Below are positions 11,778 through 28,065 of a stretch of 64,000 nt of DNA, piece after piece. The position numbers and the translations under genes are program-made. Source of the stretch: Escherichia phage Esco_phi_B-01. The stretch lies in sequence record OP292222.1. One strand, written 5' to 3'. The notes beneath the pieces are model-generated. The model made no database searches, had not been told where the DNA came from, and saw nothing but the letters and a program-made list of their open reading frames with translations. Position 1 is the first letter of the stretch, and every line of letters starts with the position of its first letter.

Positions 11778-11790
11778 GCTCCTTTTTTGC
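11767..11790 (+). terminator. rho-independent terminator (aggagc-ttag-gctcct + T6)
   Basis: GC stem, tetraloop, T-run. Confidence 0.7.
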
Positions 11791-21954: not shown

Positions 21955-22455
21955 ATGAAAAAGTTAATTATCGCAATGAGTATGCTCCTATCAGGTTGCG
22001 CGGTCCAATACGGTGATGCAGTTTCGGCTGATGAAGTTGGTAAAGCTCGTATTGCAGCTGAACAGAAACAATTCGACGGCGAAATGAAATTCCGTGCCGG
22101 TTCTGGACTTGTGTATACCCGAGCTAATAATCAATGTGGTAATAACTGTGCAAAATATGCTCAAAGGGAAATCGAATTCCAACGTGAACAAGAGTCTAAG
22201 CGTGAAGAGGTACTAGCCAAACACCAGGCAGAAATGAAGCGCCAAGATGATTTGTACAAAAAGCAGAAACTGTATTCTATGTGTGTAAACCATATCAATC
22301 TACAGATTTCTGTCCATGAGGCTCGTTATTACGAAATGCTCGAAACCGAGAGCTTCGATAAAGCTCGTGATTATAAGAAACAAATCAACAAGCTTAAGAC
22401 CAAAGTGCCTGCTGCAGTAGAACAGTGCATGGAATACGGTAAAGATAAGATTTAA
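21955..22455 (+). CDS. predicted lipoprotein (signal peptide with lipobox LLSGC), coiled-coil rich
   Basis: N-terminal MKKLIIAMSMLLSGC. Confidence 0.6.
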   Translation: MKKLIIAMSMLLSGCAVQYGDAVSADEVGKARIAAEQKQFDGEMKFRAGSGLVYTRANNQCGNNCAKYAQREIEFQREQESKREEVLAKHQAEMKRQDDLYKKQKLYSMCVNHINLQISVHEARYYEMLETESFDKARDYKKQINKLKTKVPAAVEQCMEYGKDKI

Positions 22456-22515
22456 GCAATAGAAATTTATTAAAAATAGTGTATAATGTACCTACATTCA
22501 CTTGAGGAACAGATA

Positions 22516-24189
22516 ATGAAAAAGGTTGTTATTTTAGGCGCAGGTCTTGGCTCACGGTTGTATCCAATTACTAACGAAATCCCGAAGGTATTGGTTAACT
22601 ATAAACAACATACGGTATTAAAGCATTTGTATGATTTGTATAGTAACCAATCAGATGAAATTATTCTGGTTATTCACAGCAAATTTAACGACCTCGTTAA
22701 AGGCTATATTAAATCCATTAACATGATTACTGGTGATAAGCCTAAATTCACTATTCGTAACGTTGATGTTGCTAATGGTTCAGCTCATGCAATCGATTGC
22801 ATTGCCGAAGATATCATTGGCCATAATGTCCTGTTTAACTGGTGTGACATCATTCCTATCGGTCATAAAGTTGAATGGGGTAACGACTACTGTTATACCT
22901 ATGGAACTGACTGTCGTTTTACATTTGAAGAACCGTACTTACGTGAAATTGGTACTGGTGGCGGTGTAGTTGGTTTGTATCAGGTAGCCAATTGGACAGG
23001 TTTCGACCGTTCTAATTATGGTGAAGACCTTGCTGATAACCTGGATTCAATGGTCTATTTGACCGAACGTAAACTGGATTTTGTAGTTGATGTCGGTGAC
23101 AAATTGAAACTGGCTAAGGCCCATGAAGAATCTGAAATTAACCGTGAATTTAATAAATTAGAATTCACCGAGAATCTGGCTATTAAAGTACCAACTAACG
23201 AATTAGGTAAAGAAATTCAATCTAAAGAAATCAATTGGTATAATTCTATTGATTCTGAATTCGTTCCTAGCATTGTAGACTTTTCTCCAGGCGAATTCAT
23301 TAAAATGGAACGTATCTTTGGTCGAACCATGGCAGATGCCTACCGGTTTATGTCCAAAGAAACTAAAGTCCTCATGGTTTATAAGGTCATTAGTGCATTA
23401 CGTTCATTTGGTGGAACTATTGATAACCCGTCCGATGAGCAATGGTATTCCGATGTTAAGAAAGAAGTATTGGACAAGGTCCTTATTCGTAATGCTTCTA
23501 TTGCTGGATTGATTGAAGGCTTTGCTCCACAGGGCATTACCCATGTTAACGATTTCAAAGTAGGCGACCCTGAAAAACTTCTTCGCCATGCACTAGAAAT
23601 TCTGTCTGAACATAAAGAACCGTACCAACTTATTCATGGCGACCCGCACTACAGTAATATTATGCTGTCGGACGAAGGTGATATTAAAATCATCGACCCA
23701 CGTGGTTATTTCGGTAATAGTTCTAAAGGCCCTGCGATTTATGATGAAGCTAAGGTGCTTTATTCTATCGATGGCTATGACAAATTTAACTCAGACCCTC
23801 TATGGGGCGGATTAACTCGTAACGGAACTCGTGTATTCGTTGATATCGAAAAGATTATGCCTTTAGACGATATCCCTATGTGCACATTTAAGCACAAGCT
23901 CTGGATTGCTGTTATTTGGATGGCTCTGGCAGGTTACTTTAAGAATAACCCTCTGAAAGCTCTAGGTGCTTATTATAACGGTTTGTACCAACTGAGTGTG
24001 CTGCTGAAGCGGCATCCTCGTAAGCGTAAGCTTATTACGGGTGAATTTGTCGATGAAGTTCGTGACCCTATTACGGCTCAAATTATTACTCGTTGTCCTG
24101 ATAAGTGGGTTTTGCTTGACCAGGAAACTGGTGTAAAATATAAACCTACAGGTTCTACTGAACTCCACAAACAATGGAAGAAAATTTAA
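22516..24189 (+). CDS. bifunctional nucleotidyltransferase / protein-kinase-like phosphotransferase
   Basis: N-terminus ILGAGLGSRLYPIT...PKVLV (sugar-phosphate nucleotidyltransferase G-x-G-x-R signature); C-terminus HGDPHYSNIML ... IKIIDPRGYFG (Brenner HxDxxxxN + downstream D, APH/choline-kinase-like); start at ATG after SD gaggaa. Confidence 0.75.
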   Translation: MKKVVILGAGLGSRLYPITNEIPKVLVNYKQHTVLKHLYDLYSNQSDEIILVIHSKFNDLVKGYIKSINMITGDKPKFTIRNVDVANGSAHAIDCIAEDIIGHNVLFNWCDIIPIGHKVEWGNDYCYTYGTDCRFTFEEPYLREIGTGGGVVGLYQVANWTGFDRSNYGEDLADNLDSMVYLTERKLDFVVDVGDKLKLAKAHEESEINREFNKLEFTENLAIKVPTNELGKEIQSKEINWYNSIDSEFVPSIVDFSPGEFIKMERIFGRTMADAYRFMSKETKVLMVYKVISALRSFGGTIDNPSDEQWYSDVKKEVLDKVLIRNASIAGLIEGFAPQGITHVNDFKVGDPEKLLRHALEILSEHKEPYQLIHGDPHYSNIMLSDEGDIKIIDPRGYFGNSSKGPAIYDEAKVLYSIDGYDKFNSDPLWGGLTRNGTRVFVDIEKIMPLDDIPMCTFKHKLWIAVIWMALAGYFKNNPLKALGAYYNGLYQLSVLLKRHPRKRKLITGEFVDEVRDPITAQIITRCPDKWVLLDQETGVKYKPTGSTELHKQWKKI

Positions 24190-24572
24190 TGTCGTATCGA
24201 GTAGAAAATAAGCCACATTTATGTTTTGATATCGATAACACAATCACGATTTGGAACCATGACCGTGATTATGAGAACTTTAAACCGGACACCGAAATGG
24301 TGTCCATGATTAATAAGCTTTATGATGAAGGGTACGAGATTACATTGTTCACCGCGCGTGGCATGACTTCATGTGGCCCAGGTCGAATCTTGGTTGAAGT
24401 AGTTCCTGCCTTGGTTAAGAACCTTGAAAAAATTGGATTGAAATATCACAATTTGCTTACACATAAGCCGAGTTATACTTTTATCATCGATGACCGAGCA
24501 ATCCGTCCTGACCACTTTAAAGAAATGGTTCGTGAAGGAACTCTTGATGGTTATAAGGCCTATCATCCATGA
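24189..24572 (+). CDS. small HAD-superfamily phosphatase
   Basis: motif I FDIDNTIT (DxDxT), motif II LFTARG, motif IV IIDDR; alternative start 24174. Confidence 0.7.
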   Translation: MSYRVENKPHLCFDIDNTITIWNHDRDYENFKPDTEMVSMINKLYDEGYEITLFTARGMTSCGPGRILVEVVPALVKNLEKIGLKYHNLLTHKPSYTFIIDDRAIRPDHFKEMVREGTLDGYKAYHP

Positions 24573-25105
24573 ATCCAAAAATCATTGTTATAGACGGCCC
24601 GGATAATTCCGGGAAGTCCACTTTAATTAAAAATCTGTTATCCAATAAGAAATACCGCCTTATTGATTTTCCTAAAAAGATTAATGGCAAGTGTATTTCA
24701 TTAGGAACTGATAACGATAAGGCTTTAGTTGAAACTCTGTATAAGTTTTTAGACCCTAATTTCGTTTATATCCTTGACCGTGGTTATCCAAGTAATATTG
24801 TTTACTCAGGATTCCTTCGTGGTGAAATGGACCCTTATGTAGAACTGGAAGATTGGAAAGGGTTTAAATCTGAATTTAACGTTATCGAGGTTATTTTAAC
24901 TCGCAACCCATTAGACGAAGACTTCGAAGACGACCTTATTAAATTAACCGAAGATGAGTTCAACCTAACTATCCGGCAATACGAAACATGTTTTGAAAAC
25001 GTGTTTAAAATCTTAAATCATGACGGCCATAATAATTTGCTTAATGTTGATATGGTAGAATTAAAACGTCTGAACGAATATATTGAAAATAAGGTGAATA
25101 AATGA
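24569..25105 (+). CDS. thymidylate-kinase-like P-loop NMP kinase
   Basis: P-loop IVIDGPDNSGKST and DRGY..S..Y motif resembling Tmk DR(Y/H) region. Confidence 0.65.
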   Translation: MNPKIIVIDGPDNSGKSTLIKNLLSNKKYRLIDFPKKINGKCISLGTDNDKALVETLYKFLDPNFVYILDRGYPSNIVYSGFLRGEMDPYVELEDWKGFKSEFNVIEVILTRNPLDEDFEDDLIKLTEDEFNLTIRQYETCFENVFKILNHDGHNNLLNVDMVELKRLNEYIENKVNK

Positions 25106-25800
25106 AACACATTACCGCTGTTAGTTTTGAAAATGCATTTAAACAAATGAACGAAGAAATCCTGGAAGCTCCACAGTTTGCAGTTGATTCTCGTATCGGA
25201 CGTTGTTATGAAATTGGTTCTGCTTCGGTAGAAGTACTGGATGCAAGCACCTATAAATTCACCGACCCACGTATTAATCGTATTAGTTATGAATATGCCG
25301 AATCCTTTTGGAAATTTATGATTTCTGGTGGTACTGACGCTGCCGAAGCATTTAAGGAATACCCTAATGTTGCTAAGTTCATTGATAAGCCGAAAAGTGA
25401 CGTATTGCCTGCAAACTTCAACACTTTCTATGGACCTCGAATTGTGGCCCAACTCCCAGCCCTACTTAAAGAGCTTAAAGAAAAGGCTAACTCGCGAAGA
25501 GTTGTGTTCCAGATTCTCCAAGAACAAGACCAAGCCCTCCTTGATTCTGACGAATCCTTAGAATATCCGTGTACCGATTCGGTAACGTATTATATTCGTG
25601 ACGGACGTTTGTATGCACACACCCATATGCGTTCACAGAACTGCGCTGTTGTTATGCAGCTGGATTTCTATCTGCAGGGTAAACTGATGGCATTTATTGC
25701 TGAACAGTGTGGTGTCGGTTTAGGTACATATTCCCACACCATGGTAAGTGCACACGTGTTTGAACGCGATTTTGACTACGTCCGAGGTTTCCTGAAATGA
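25102..25800 (+). CDS. 42: deoxycytidylate hydroxymethylase (thymidylate synthase superfamily)
   Basis: SRR, catalytic Cys in PCTDS, YYIRDG, MRSQN, and Asp in QLDFY at the position that confers cytosine specificity in T4 gp42; Glu/Trp in AESFWKF. Confidence 0.82.
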   Translation: MKHITAVSFENAFKQMNEEILEAPQFAVDSRIGRCYEIGSASVEVLDASTYKFTDPRINRISYEYAESFWKFMISGGTDAAEAFKEYPNVAKFIDKPKSDVLPANFNTFYGPRIVAQLPALLKELKEKANSRRVVFQILQEQDQALLDSDESLEYPCTDSVTYYIRDGRLYAHTHMRSQNCAVVMQLDFYLQGKLMAFIAEQCGVGLGTYSHTMVSAHVFERDFDYVRGFLK

Positions 25801-26690
25801 GTTTGTTTATCGTTCCTATTTTCAGTATGCGTAGTTACGAAACAGGTGAATATGCCGTCCTTAAGGACGGCAATTTTCAACTCCATTTAAATCGTGCTCG
25901 TCCAGGTGATTATCTGGCTTATCCTAGAAATTCGAGCGATATCAAAGAATGCATTGAATTATTCCCGGAACTGAATTTCGTACCACTTTGGTATAAAGAA
26001 AATGCTTATGAAACCCGTAAACATTTCTGGTCTGAAAATGAGTTTGTAGTCGATTCACTAATCGAATACTACGATTGCTCAGGACTGGTAACTGATATCA
26101 CCGGTTATGATGGTGCTCACACTGTACAATTCAACTTTAATATCACAATGGACCCTGAAGTTCCTCGTTATTATATCGACGAGTTCATTGATATTGATGT
26201 GGCTTCAGTTGAACGTTCACTTTATACTACAGTCCTGAATCAATGCCAGAAAGACGTCCTGGTGTCACGAGGTGCATCCTCTGATAAGATTTTTGTAGAC
26301 CAAAAGGTAATTAATCCTGCAGTAATTGAGCGTTACTCTGAAGGTCTAGCGCCTATTAAAATTGATGGTATTTTCCATCCATTCCGTATTTCGGATAAGT
26401 GCTATCAATTCGAAAGAGTTGTAGACCAAGCTGCCGCTGAAGGTGCTCGTCTTTATATCACTGACCCGAATGATTCATTTAAGCGTGAAGACTATCGTCC
26501 TGATGTAGAGATTATTAAATTCAAACCGAGTAAGGTTGAATATTATCAAATTCTGAAATCAAGACCACATATCATTTATCATGAGAACCCAGGTTTAGTA
26601 TTCCATCCTGGTCTGGCTGAATTCATTTATTTCGGTGCCAATATTCATTCTGAATACGAAATGCCACGTTATGAGGACGTAGTATGCTAG
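25797..26690 (+). CDS. hypothetical protein (297 aa) occupying the beta-glucosyltransferase slot between 42 and uvsX
   Basis: ORF; no recognisable motif; position only. Confidence 0.55.
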   Translation: MSLFIVPIFSMRSYETGEYAVLKDGNFQLHLNRARPGDYLAYPRNSSDIKECIELFPELNFVPLWYKENAYETRKHFWSENEFVVDSLIEYYDCSGLVTDITGYDGAHTVQFNFNITMDPEVPRYYIDEFIDIDVASVERSLYTTVLNQCQKDVLVSRGASSDKIFVDQKVINPAVIERYSEGLAPIKIDGIFHPFRISDKCYQFERVVDQAAAEGARLYITDPNDSFKREDYRPDVEIIKFKPSKVEYYQILKSRPHIIYHENPGLVFHPGLAEFIYFGANIHSEYEMPRYEDVVC

Positions 26691-26816
26691 GTCCTCTATT
26701 GCTTTTTATAGGTTTGTTATTATTCTCTTTCGGAGCCTTGCTATTACTAGTGTGGCTCGAGAAACGAGAAGTTCGGAAGATAGTCGATAAGGCTATCAAC
26801 CGAGGAATTAAGTAAT
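26685..26816 (+). CDS. small membrane peptide (43 aa)
   Basis: hydrophobic ORF overlapping upstream stop. Confidence 0.35.
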
Positions 26817-26892: not shown

Positions 26893-28065
26893 ATGTCTGA
26901 TTTAAAATCCCGTTTGATTAAAGCTTCTACTTCTAAAATGACTGCCGACCTGACCAAATCTAAATTGTTTAATGGTCGTGACGAAGTTCCTACTCGTATT
27001 CCTATGCTTAATATTGCATTGGGTGGTGCGTTGAATGCAGGCTTACAATCAGGTTTGACAATCTTTGCTGCACCGTCTAAACACTTTAAAACGTTGTTTG
27101 GATTAACTATGGTTGCGGCATATATGAAGAAATATCCAGACGCAATTTGCTTGTTCTATGACTCTGAATTCGGTGCTTCAGAATCTTATTTCCGTTCAAT
27201 GGGTGTTGACCTGGAACGTGTGGTTCATACGCCAATCCAGTCAGTCGAACAACTGAAGGTTGACATGACCAACCAATTAGAAGAAATTACTCGTGGCGAA
27301 AAGGTTATTATCTTTATCGACTCCATCGGTAACACTGCTTCTAAGAAAGAAACCGAAGATGCTTTGAACGAGAAAGTTGTAGGTGATATGACTCGTGCTA
27401 AGTCTCTGAAATCTCTGTTCCGTATCGTAACACCTTATCTGACTATCAAGGATATTCCTTGCGTAGCAATTAACCATACGGCTATGGAAATTGGTGGAAT
27501 GTATCCTAAAGAGATTATGGGTGGCGGTACTGGTATTCTGTACTCTGCTTCTACCGTATTCTTTATCTCTAAACGTCAGGTTAAAGATGGTACCGAGCTC
27601 ACTGGTTATGACTTCACCCTGAAGGCCGAAAAATCTCGTACTGTTAAAGAGAAATCAACGTTCCCAATTACTGTGAACTTTGAAGGTGGTATCGACCCAT
27701 TTAGTGGTCTGCTCGAAATGGCTACTGATATTGGCTTTGTTGTGAAACCTAAAGCTGGTTGGTATAATCGTGCATTCCTTGACGAAACCACGGGTGAAAT
27801 GGTTCAAGAAGAAAAATCATGGCGTGCTAAAGCTACCGATTGTGTCGAGTTCTGGGGACCGCTGTTTAAACATGCTCCATTCCGTGAAGCAATCGAGAAT
27901 AAGTATAAGCTCGGTGCAATTAATTCTATTAAAGAAGTCGATGATGCGGTGAACGACCTTATTAACTCTCGTGTCTCTAAGAACGTTGCAGTTAAATTGA
28001 GTGGCGACACTCAAAGCGCAGCTGATATCGAAAACGATTTAGAAGAGATGGATTTAGATGACTGA
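26893..28065 (+). CDS. uvsX: recombinase UvsX (RecA-like)
   Basis: near-identity recalled to T4 UvsX N-terminus (MSDLKSRLIKASTSK...) and throughout. Confidence 0.95.
   Translation: MSDLKSRLIKASTSKMTADLTKSKLFNGRDEVPTRIPMLNIALGGALNAGLQSGLTIFAAPSKHFKTLFGLTMVAAYMKKYPDAICLFYDSEFGASESYFRSMGVDLERVVHTPIQSVEQLKVDMTNQLEEITRGEKVIIFIDSIGNTASKKETEDALNEKVVGDMTRAKSLKSLFRIVTPYLTIKDIPCVAINHTAMEIGGMYPKEIMGGGTGILYSASTVFFISKRQVKDGTELTGYDFTLKAEKSRTVKEKSTFPITVNFEGGIDPFSGLLEMATDIGFVVKPKAGWYNRAFLDETTGEMVQEEKSWRAKATDCVEFWGPLFKHAPFREAIENKYKLGAINSIKEVDDAVNDLINSRVSKNVAVKLSGDTQSAADIENDLEEMDLDD

Follow-up and report, generated by a model that had tools for sequence, protein, structure and literature searches.

A compact GT-B protein in the beta-glucosyltransferase slot of a Dhakavirus is a predicted first arabinosyltransferase for 5-hydroxycytosine

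What does a T4-type phage keep at the place where T4 has its beta-glucosyltransferase gene (b-gt) if the protein encoded there bears no likeness to that enzyme? The question is raised by an open reading frame (ORF), 25797..26690 on the + strand, in a 64,000-nucleotide stretch of Escherichia phage Esco_phi_B-01 (sequence record OP292222.1; this whole stretch is called the window below). The window represents a JS10/JS98-like Dhakavirus of T4 type and, over this ORF, is 99.3% identical in nucleotides and 100% identical in protein to phage JS10. The original prediction regarded the ORF as the leading candidate for a transferase acting on hydroxymethylcytosine (hmC) in DNA, possibly with a different donor sugar. 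We propose, with a probability of about 0.72, that its product is the base-proximal (first) arabinosyltransferase of a predicted pathway that places arabinose on 5-hydroxycytosine (5hoC) in phage DNA. The evidence considered here consists of fold, orthology, gene context and co-occurrence with a hydroxylase gene.

The ORF has the organization of a translationally coupled gene. Its start codon, ATG at 25797-25799, and the TGA at 25798-25800 that ends the preceding ORF overlap as ATGA, a GAGG(T) Shine-Dalgarno sequence lies at 25784-25788, and uvsX follows downstream, so that the extent, coupling and placement given originally all hold. The order in T4 at the matching slot is 42, b-gt, segA and uvsX, and “beta-gt slot” is a fair description of the place. 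The earlier wording “exactly between gene 42 and uvsX” holds for the slot and fails in its details: the gene upstream does not encode a hydroxymethylase of gene-42 type, and a 43-codon ORF intervenes before uvsX. Relatives of the protein were found by tblastn in 352 phage records at 26–100% protein identity, in 117 clusters of a large protein database, and as 238 cluster representatives in an exhaustive profile search (E <= 1e-3); the homologues in the 352 records and the 238 representatives identify the ORF as a genuine gene rather than a chance reading frame. Across 72 diverse family members, 47 positions are at least 93% conserved. Most of the phage records listed call the gene product a “hypothetical protein”, and a few mistakenly name it “RNA polymerase binding protein”.

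The upstream gene bears on the identity of the acceptor base. It had been named gene 42, which goes with an hmC acceptor, and neither assignment survived comparison. Its product matches the 5-hydroxy-deoxycytidine monophosphate (5-hydroxy-dCMP) synthase structures of phage HY126 (9iqu/9iqc/9ir2) at E 2e-125, against E 1.5e-4 only for T4 dCMP hydroxymethylase (1b49), and is 80% identical to RB69 gp48 compared with 24.5% to T4 gp42. The 9iq*/9ir* entries belong to an RB69-like phage: RB69 gp3 aligns near-identically (E 5e-249) to 9iqz, the title of which names HY126. RB69 gp48 has been shown experimentally to make 5-hydroxy-dCMP from dCMP with O2 and flavin, and Asn at the position of Escherichia coli ThyA D169 is a predictive signature of such synthases (PMC13326640). 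The aligned site reads RSQN or RSEN in the window hydroxylase (MRSQN), RB69 gp48 and Thanatos TH1_062, and RSND, RSVD and RSCD in T4 gp42, JS10 td and E. coli ThyA, respectively. A tblastn search of the window and JS10 with T4 gp42 matched only this 5-hydroxy-dCMP-synthase-type ORF, so that a gene-42-type hydroxymethylase is undetectable in JS10. RB69 DNA was first reported to contain arabinosyl-hmC (PMC6024577), an assignment since corrected to arabinosyl-5hoC (PMC13326640, PMC13390438). Because the upstream enzyme is of the 5-hydroxy-dCMP synthase type, the acceptor base should be 5hoC and not hmC, and the sugar would be attached directly to O5 with no methylene bridge.

The original prediction could assign no fold to the transferase candidate. 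An AlphaFold2 model built from a 72-sequence alignment (mean predicted local distance difference test score 95.1; predicted template modelling score 0.90) has two Rossmann-like beta/alpha/beta domains with a cleft between them, as in the GT-B superfamily, which points to a protein of glycosyltransferase type. MshA (3c4q) is the best Foldseek match, and the published top structural matches of RB69 gp46:47 are the same as those of this model (PMC13326640 Table 1). In the viral structure library BFVD, the best matches include a homologue from Acinetobacter phage KARL-1 (template modelling score, TM, 0.95), and the models RB69ORF047c and RB69ORF046c reach TM 0.97 and 0.96 (normalized to target length). 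In tblastn, the protein corresponds to RB69 gp47 (residues 1-179, 70% identity) followed by gp46 (65% identity), which were explained as a single gene split by sequencing error and, together with DLP3 gp79, termed “arabinosyltransferase 1” (Lee et al., NAR 2026, PMC13326640). Thanatos TH1_063 belongs to the same family (52% identity, E 3e-99). The profile phrog_3891 matches at E 3.3e-159 and carries the PHROG label “unknown function”. Within the family, R197, K246 and H270 are invariant, and E263 and E275 are Glu or Asp in 72 of 72 sequences; this acidic pair has a spacing of 11 with H270 in between. GT-B glycosyltransferases have conserved residues in the C-terminal domain that serve the nucleotide diphosphate (Arg/Lys) and the ribose (Glu). 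To judge from their sequence position, R197, K246, H270 and E275 are candidate donor-site residues.

Association with the hydroxylase extends well beyond this phage. Among 49 IMG/VR loci with a relative of the transferase, a thymidylate synthase (TS) homologue lies directly upstream in 45, and two of the other four are cut at a contig end. The D169-equivalent residue is Asn in 44 of these 45 TS homologues, Ser in one and Asp in none. The pairing recurs in Sinorhizobium phage phiM9 (Pootjesviridae), in which the gene for a 348-residue protein follows td.2 (MRSQN) with overlapping start and stop; this protein matches the transferase-family profile in hhalign with 99.2% probability (E 7.5e-20). 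RL38J1, a related phage of the Pootjesviridae, has galactose in the base-proximal position on 5hoC (PMC13326640). Together with the phiM9 pairing, this makes the 5hoC base, and not arabinose, the constant partner of the family, which is the pattern expected of a base-proximal transferase.

Gene neighbourhoods in these loci include a further recurrent partner, a Tmk-like nucleotide kinase that adjoins the transferase relative in most of the 49. Natural fusions of the two, in both orders, occur in nine representatives (P0215, P0227, P0232, P0238, P0251, P0254, P0259, P0212 and P0226). Their kinase-type extensions are mutually homologous; P0215 matches Pfam Thymidylate_kin at E 1.2e-4, and hhalign relates the extension to the Tmk-like kinase of the window (E 4.4e-5, 69% probability). 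Only this profile comparison linked them, as phmmer with the window kinase gave no match to the fused proteins. Seven other representatives (P0140, P0152, P0154, P0164, P0177, P0180 and P0220) carry an N-terminal HAD-IIIA domain resembling KdsC and KDN-9-P phosphatase, whose profile finds 2p9j (E 5.8e-9) and KdsC (about 1e-6) in PDB. Kinship of this domain with the AfhF-like phosphatase of the window was considered and rejected, since the two domains proved unrelated by comparison. The HAD fusions may point to different donor sugars, ulosonic acids being one possibility.

Two metagenomic T4-like loci (L042 6790-9576 and L060 4426-7576) have the order Flavodoxin_2 protein (FMN-reductase-like), Asn-type TS homologue, transferase and Tmk-like kinase, with no sugar-nucleotide genes within 6–8 kb. 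A dedicated flavin reductase fits a flavin-dependent hydroxylase, and these phages presumably use a nucleoside diphosphate sugar of the host. In a phage lineage with Pol III-alpha (L055 7475-10060, L059 4301-6865 and L061 5496-9220), the transferase relative is flanked by a Tmk-like kinase on one side and a Peptidase_U32 protein on the other. A TS homologue was detected neither by tblastn in L055 and L059 nor, among the called genes of L061, by Pfam annotation. RB69 gp50 (locus L003 5493-6662, - strand) is also a Peptidase_U32 protein (42 bits). Among U32 proteins are hydroxylases that work without O2, namely UbiU/V, RlhA (5-hydroxycytidine in rRNA) and TrhP (5-hydroxyuridine in tRNA). By analogy, cytosine-5 hydroxylation independent of oxygen could be the role of the phage U32 protein. 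We found no paper that links U32 to 5hoC in phages, and the window phage has no U32 gene.

Donor supply is suggested by the other members of the unit that the transferase gene closes. Five genes overlap or abut (Table 1), encoding in order a predicted uridine diphosphate (UDP)-arabinose pyrophosphorylase/kinase, a phosphatase, the Tmk-like kinase, the hydroxylase and the transferase. The first has Pfam matches to NTP_transferase (3.4e-8) and APH (9.6e-6) and is 41–44% identical to RB69 gp52/gp53. The second is 61% identical to RB69 gp51 and matches an NCBIfam capsule biosynthesis phosphatase (E 1.3e-14); the third is 38% identical to RB69 gp45. UDP-arabinose pyrophosphorylase activity has been reported for HY126 AfhE, and conversion of arabinofuranose-1,5-bisphosphate to arabinofuranose-1-phosphate for the AfhF class (PMC13326640 section 27); for the conversion of arabinose-5-phosphate to UDP-D-arabinofuranose by AfhE and AfhF, PMC13326640 cites He et al. 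The presence of AfhE-like and AfhF-like genes nearby supports the suggestion in the original prediction of a donor other than glucose.

The pathway may be pictured in three steps, in which the donor, the linkage and the form of the acceptor are predictions. The hydroxylase would convert dCMP to 5-hydroxy-dCMP, and the first two enzymes of the unit would convert arabinose-5-phosphate to UDP-D-arabinofuranose. The transferase, as a compact GT4-like GT-B enzyme of retaining type, would then move arabinofuranose from its UDP carrier to the 5-hydroxyl of 5hoC, giving an alpha-linked, ether-bridged sugar. An alpha linkage has been reported for the base-proximal arabinose of RB69 (PMC13326640), which is consistent with a retaining-type fold. 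By analogy with T4, 5hoC already in DNA is somewhat favoured as acceptor over the mononucleotide; the authors of the DLP3 study cannot distinguish between nucleotide and DNA as the recipient of the first sugar (PMC13326640 section 26).

The phage appears to have a single transferase. Searches by tblastn with RB69 gp3, gp49, gp50 and gp55 and with T4 b-gt gave no match in the window or in the JS10 genome, which was covered except for its first 1.9 kb (= rIIA). T4 alpha-glucosyltransferase (a-gt) gave one short match, taken as chance (24339-24446; E 0.027 in the window and 0.073 in JS10). The JS10 annotation lists no glycosyltransferase, and the gap between gp39 and rIIA, where RB69 has gp3, contains no ORF of at least 150 residues in the window phage. 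The window and the nearly identical genome of JS10 thus contain no recognizable transferase other than this protein, in keeping with its earlier description as the leading candidate. In the phage collection searched, gp3-like glycosyltransferases occur in 212 records, from Mosigvirus-type and Acinetobacter phages only; the 352 records of the family studied here also take in phages of Klebsiella, Serratia, Yersinia, Proteus and Enterobacter. Published chemistry relates the number of transferases to the number of sugars: one in Thanatos (mono-substituted), two in RB69 (mono- and di-arabinose) and three in DLP3 (tri-arabinose) (PMC13326640). With one transferase, and one sugar per transferase by analogy with these phages, the phage DNA should carry mono-arabinosylated 5hoC. 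As the phage has no isomerase of its own, its arabinose-5-phosphate would be expected to come from the host.

Comparison with described systems places the protein most closely beside RB69 gp46:47, DLP3 gp79 and TH1_063, which are orthologues encoded directly after a 5-hydroxy-dCMP synthase gene and share the structural matches 6kih and 3c4q. AfhE-like and AfhF-like genes accompany the transferase in RB69 as well, although the window cluster lacks the arabinose-5-phosphate isomerase (gp55), the U32 protein (gp50), gp49 and the second transferase (gp3) of that phage. The Tmk-like kinase gene precedes the hydroxylase gene in the window, whereas it follows the transferase gene in RB69, and the transferase gene is intact rather than split in two as in the RB69 record. 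RB69 gp3, the HY126 glycosyltransferase (9iqz, 9ir0) and DLP3 gp76/gp77 have no detectable homology to the window protein (BLASTP E 7). These gp3-type enzymes are about 70 residues longer and have been assigned to the second and third sugars as distal arabinosyltransferases. The early remark that the protein resembles neither T4 glucosyltransferase was accurate: b-gt has no tblastn match in the window, and hhalign of the family profile with a-gt (1y6f) gives a probability of 0.2%. The gene also differs from those of T4 in that its partner is not an hmC-producing gene 42. Bacterial retaining GT4 enzymes (sucrose-phosphate synthase 6kih, BshA 6n1x, PglA 8dqd, PimA 2gej and MshA 3c4q) are 9–11% identical to the protein and 60–100 residues longer.

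Several observations weigh against an arabinosyltransferase. Pfam (E <= 0.1) and NCBIfam scans of the protein gave no family match, including to Glycos_transf_1; PDB searches with its sequence and with the family profile gave chance matches only (E > 0.2); and hhalign with the gp3-like family alignment gave a probability of 0.2%. The canonical GT4 E-x7-E motif is absent from the C-terminal domain. The protein is strongly acidic (isoelectric point, pI, 4.88; net charge -17), which is unusual for a DNA-binding enzyme. Family medians are pI 5.2 and charge -11, compared with 9.05 and +6 for T4 b-gt, 6.1 and -5 for a-gt, and 6.3 and -3 for gp3. Sugar transfer has been demonstrated for no family member, and these transferases are called “putative” (PMC13326640 section 26; PMC13390438). 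DLP3 transferases tried singly gave no arabinosylation of 5hoC DNA with UDP-arabinofuranose or UDP-arabinopyranose (PMC13326640 section 26, data not shown), and TH1_063 gave no transfer in vitro with the acceptors tried, which were all unmodified (PMC12838424). We found no published analysis of the DNA of a JS10/JS98-type phage.

The acidity of the protein relative to b-gt and the inactivity of the DLP3 enzymes on 5hoC DNA can also be read as signs that sugar is added before replication. Free 5-hydroxy-dCMP would then be glycosylated, the Tmk-like kinase would phosphorylate the sugar-bearing nucleotide, and the replisome would polymerize an arabinosylated dCTP analogue. Host base-excision glycosylases act on bare 5hoC in DNA, so a phage would run a risk by leaving it exposed. 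The family is tied to enzymes that work on mononucleotides, through the hydroxylase upstream at 45 of 49 loci and the kinase adjacent at most of them, through metagenomic modules of only flavin reductase, hydroxylase, transferase and kinase, and through the nine fusions in both orders. A T4 gp1-type deoxynucleoside monophosphate kinase already makes the 5-hydroxy diphosphate from 5-hydroxy-dCMP (PMC13326640 section 24), and JS10 has gp1, which leaves the second, Tmk-like kinase without a job in the published pathway. However, fusion and adjacency indicate linkage in a pathway and not the order of reactions, T4 a-gt is mildly acidic too, and DNA is the acceptor for every phage DNA sugar transferase that has been characterized, including T4 a-gt and b-gt as well as DLP3 gp76 and gp77, the latter two on RB69 DNA (PMC13326640). 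Moreover, 5-hydroxy-dCTP is readily incorporated with the hydroxylase and gp1-type kinase alone, so competition should leave bare 5hoC in DNA unless this is countered in some way. We therefore consider transfer to the free nucleotide plausible but rather unlikely; if true, it would mean that the dCTP analogue used in replication is already glycosylated, in contrast to T4, whose DNA is glucosylated after replication.

Other roles are much harder to sustain. The sole published activity in the family is the formation of UDP-xylose from UTP and xylose-1-phosphate by TH1_063 in vitro (PMC12838424), and this relative is 52% identical, so the protein might be a UDP-pentose pyrophosphorylase that makes the activated sugar instead of transferring it. 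That assay was a single end-point measurement by liquid chromatography–mass spectrometry with a non-native sugar, and a side reaction, a reaction run in reverse or a host enzyme carried over in purification could account for the activity. The GT-B fold is not that of nucleotidyltransferases, which is GT-A-like, no NTP_transferase profile matches the protein, and the cluster already has a dedicated NTP-transferase domain, the HY126 AfhE counterpart of which reportedly has UDP-arabinose pyrophosphorylase activity (PMC13326640 section 27). Lineages with no sugar-activation genes would, moreover, be left with no transferase at all. The wrong fold and the dedicated NTP-transferase thus make a true pyrophosphorylase role very unlikely. 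Even less probable is that the protein, with its GT-B fold, alters the donor sugar as a UDP-sugar epimerase or hydrolase instead of transferring it. Foldseek does place non-hydrolysing UDP-N-acetylglucosamine 2-epimerases (7vza, 3ot5 and 1f6d) near the top, and the Pootjesviridae relative RL38J1_215 matches a 2-epimerase first (PMC13326640 Table 1), yet by the searches of the window and JS10 the phage would have no transferase, and the parallel between transferase and sugar numbers across Thanatos, RB69 and DLP3 (PMC13326640) would be broken. A stand-in for T4 b-gt acting on hmC in DNA, as first envisaged, would agree with the slot, the GT-B fold and the original report of arabinosyl-hmC in RB69 (PMC6024577). 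It is scarcely credible given the type of the adjacent TS homologue, the failure to detect a gene-42-type hydroxymethylase in JS10 and the correction of the RB69 report (PMC13326640, PMC13390438). The first arabinosyltransferase remains the preferred assignment.

Table 1. Features of the modification cluster and its surroundings in the window
Feature	Position	Strand	Remarks
Sigma-70-like promoter match TAGAAA-16-TATAAT	22460..22487	+	10/12 positions; directly 5' of the five-gene unit
Bifunctional NTP-transferase and kinase (AfhE / RB69 gp52:53 class)	22516..24189	+	Predicted to be both an arabinose-5-phosphate kinase and a UDP-arabinose pyrophosphorylase
HAD-type sugar-phosphate phosphatase (AfhF / RB69 gp51 class)	24174..24572	+	PDB 9iqw, E 7.9e-53
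Tmk-like P-loop nucleotide kinase (RB69 gp45 class)	24569..25105	+	phrog_761 thymidylate kinase, E 1.9e-39
MotA-box-type middle-promoter-like match TGCTTAA-N12-TAGAAT	25038..25061	+	41 nucleotides upstream of the hydroxylase start
5-hydroxy-dCMP synthase, TS homologue (flavin/O2-dependent hydroxylase type)	25102..25800	+	PDB matches, RB69 gp48, Asn motif
Predicted transferase, compact GT-B, 297 residues	25797..26690	+	ATG start, 297 codons, TAG stop 26688-26690
Hydrophobic single-pass peptide ORF, 43 codons, MLGPLLLFIGLLLFSFGALLLLVWLEKREVRKIVDKAINRGIK	26684..26815	+	GAGGA 5'; ATG overlaps the transferase end (ATGCTAG)
uvsX	26893..28065	+	Pfam T4_UVSX_C, E 1.4e-36

Some details of the cluster concern its boundaries and expression. 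For the NTP-transferase/kinase gene, ATG 22516 is a likelier start than the mechanically assigned 22486: phrog_4098 aligns from residue 11, GAGGA lies 7 nucleotides upstream of ATG 22516, this start is annotated in JS10, and 22486 falls inside the TATAAT hexamer of the promoter-like match. That match is a weak candidate for an early promoter. A scan of the region for sigma-70 promoters and terminators gave a match total no higher than in shuffled sequence, so that promoter assignments are suggestive only. The MotA-box-like match before the hydroxylase gene could drive hydroxylase and transferase jointly. The pattern TGCTTNA-N11-13-TANNNT occurs 11 times in the window against 3.3 expected, a number reached in 0 of 100 shuffles; matches on the + strand include those at 11788, 15564, 25038, 43755, 48484 and 53238. 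The late-promoter motif TATAAATA was not found near the modification cluster. In G+C content the cluster does not stand out from its surroundings, and composition thus gives no sign of recent import. The C-terminal 18 residues encoded by the 43-codon ORF after the transferase gene are 100% conserved in 19 Dhakavirus-type records, only two of which annotate it. Just upstream of the cluster, a 166-residue ORF (21955-22455, + strand), “hypothetical” in JS10, encodes a protein that begins like a lipoprotein (MKKLIIAMSMLLSGC...).

An earlier study of RB69 and DLP3 described the family together with its fold and proposed role (PMC13326640; again termed “putative” in PMC13390438) and listed Dhakaviruses among the groups with a conserved cluster (PMC13326640). 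The present analysis adds a reduced cluster of five genes with only one transferase, the link to an Asn-type hydroxylase in 44 of 45 loci, the extension of the family to Pootjesviridae by profile comparison, and its kinase and phosphatase fusions. These results give a corrected annotation to a conserved “hypothetical protein” that occurs in 352 genome records of T4-like phages in the collection searched, and they correct the mislabelling of a cytosine hydroxylase as the hydroxymethylase “gene 42” in these phages. For phage therapy and engineering it is important to know which phages produce arabinosylated cytosine, as this modification reportedly shields phage DNA from restriction enzymes, from some CRISPR-Cas types and from the glycosylase Brig1. 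With five overlapping genes and one transferase, the cluster of JS10/JS98 type appears to be the pathway in its smallest natural form, and its small size makes it a convenient system in which to study transfer of the first sugar in vitro and whether that sugar is added to DNA or to the nucleotide.

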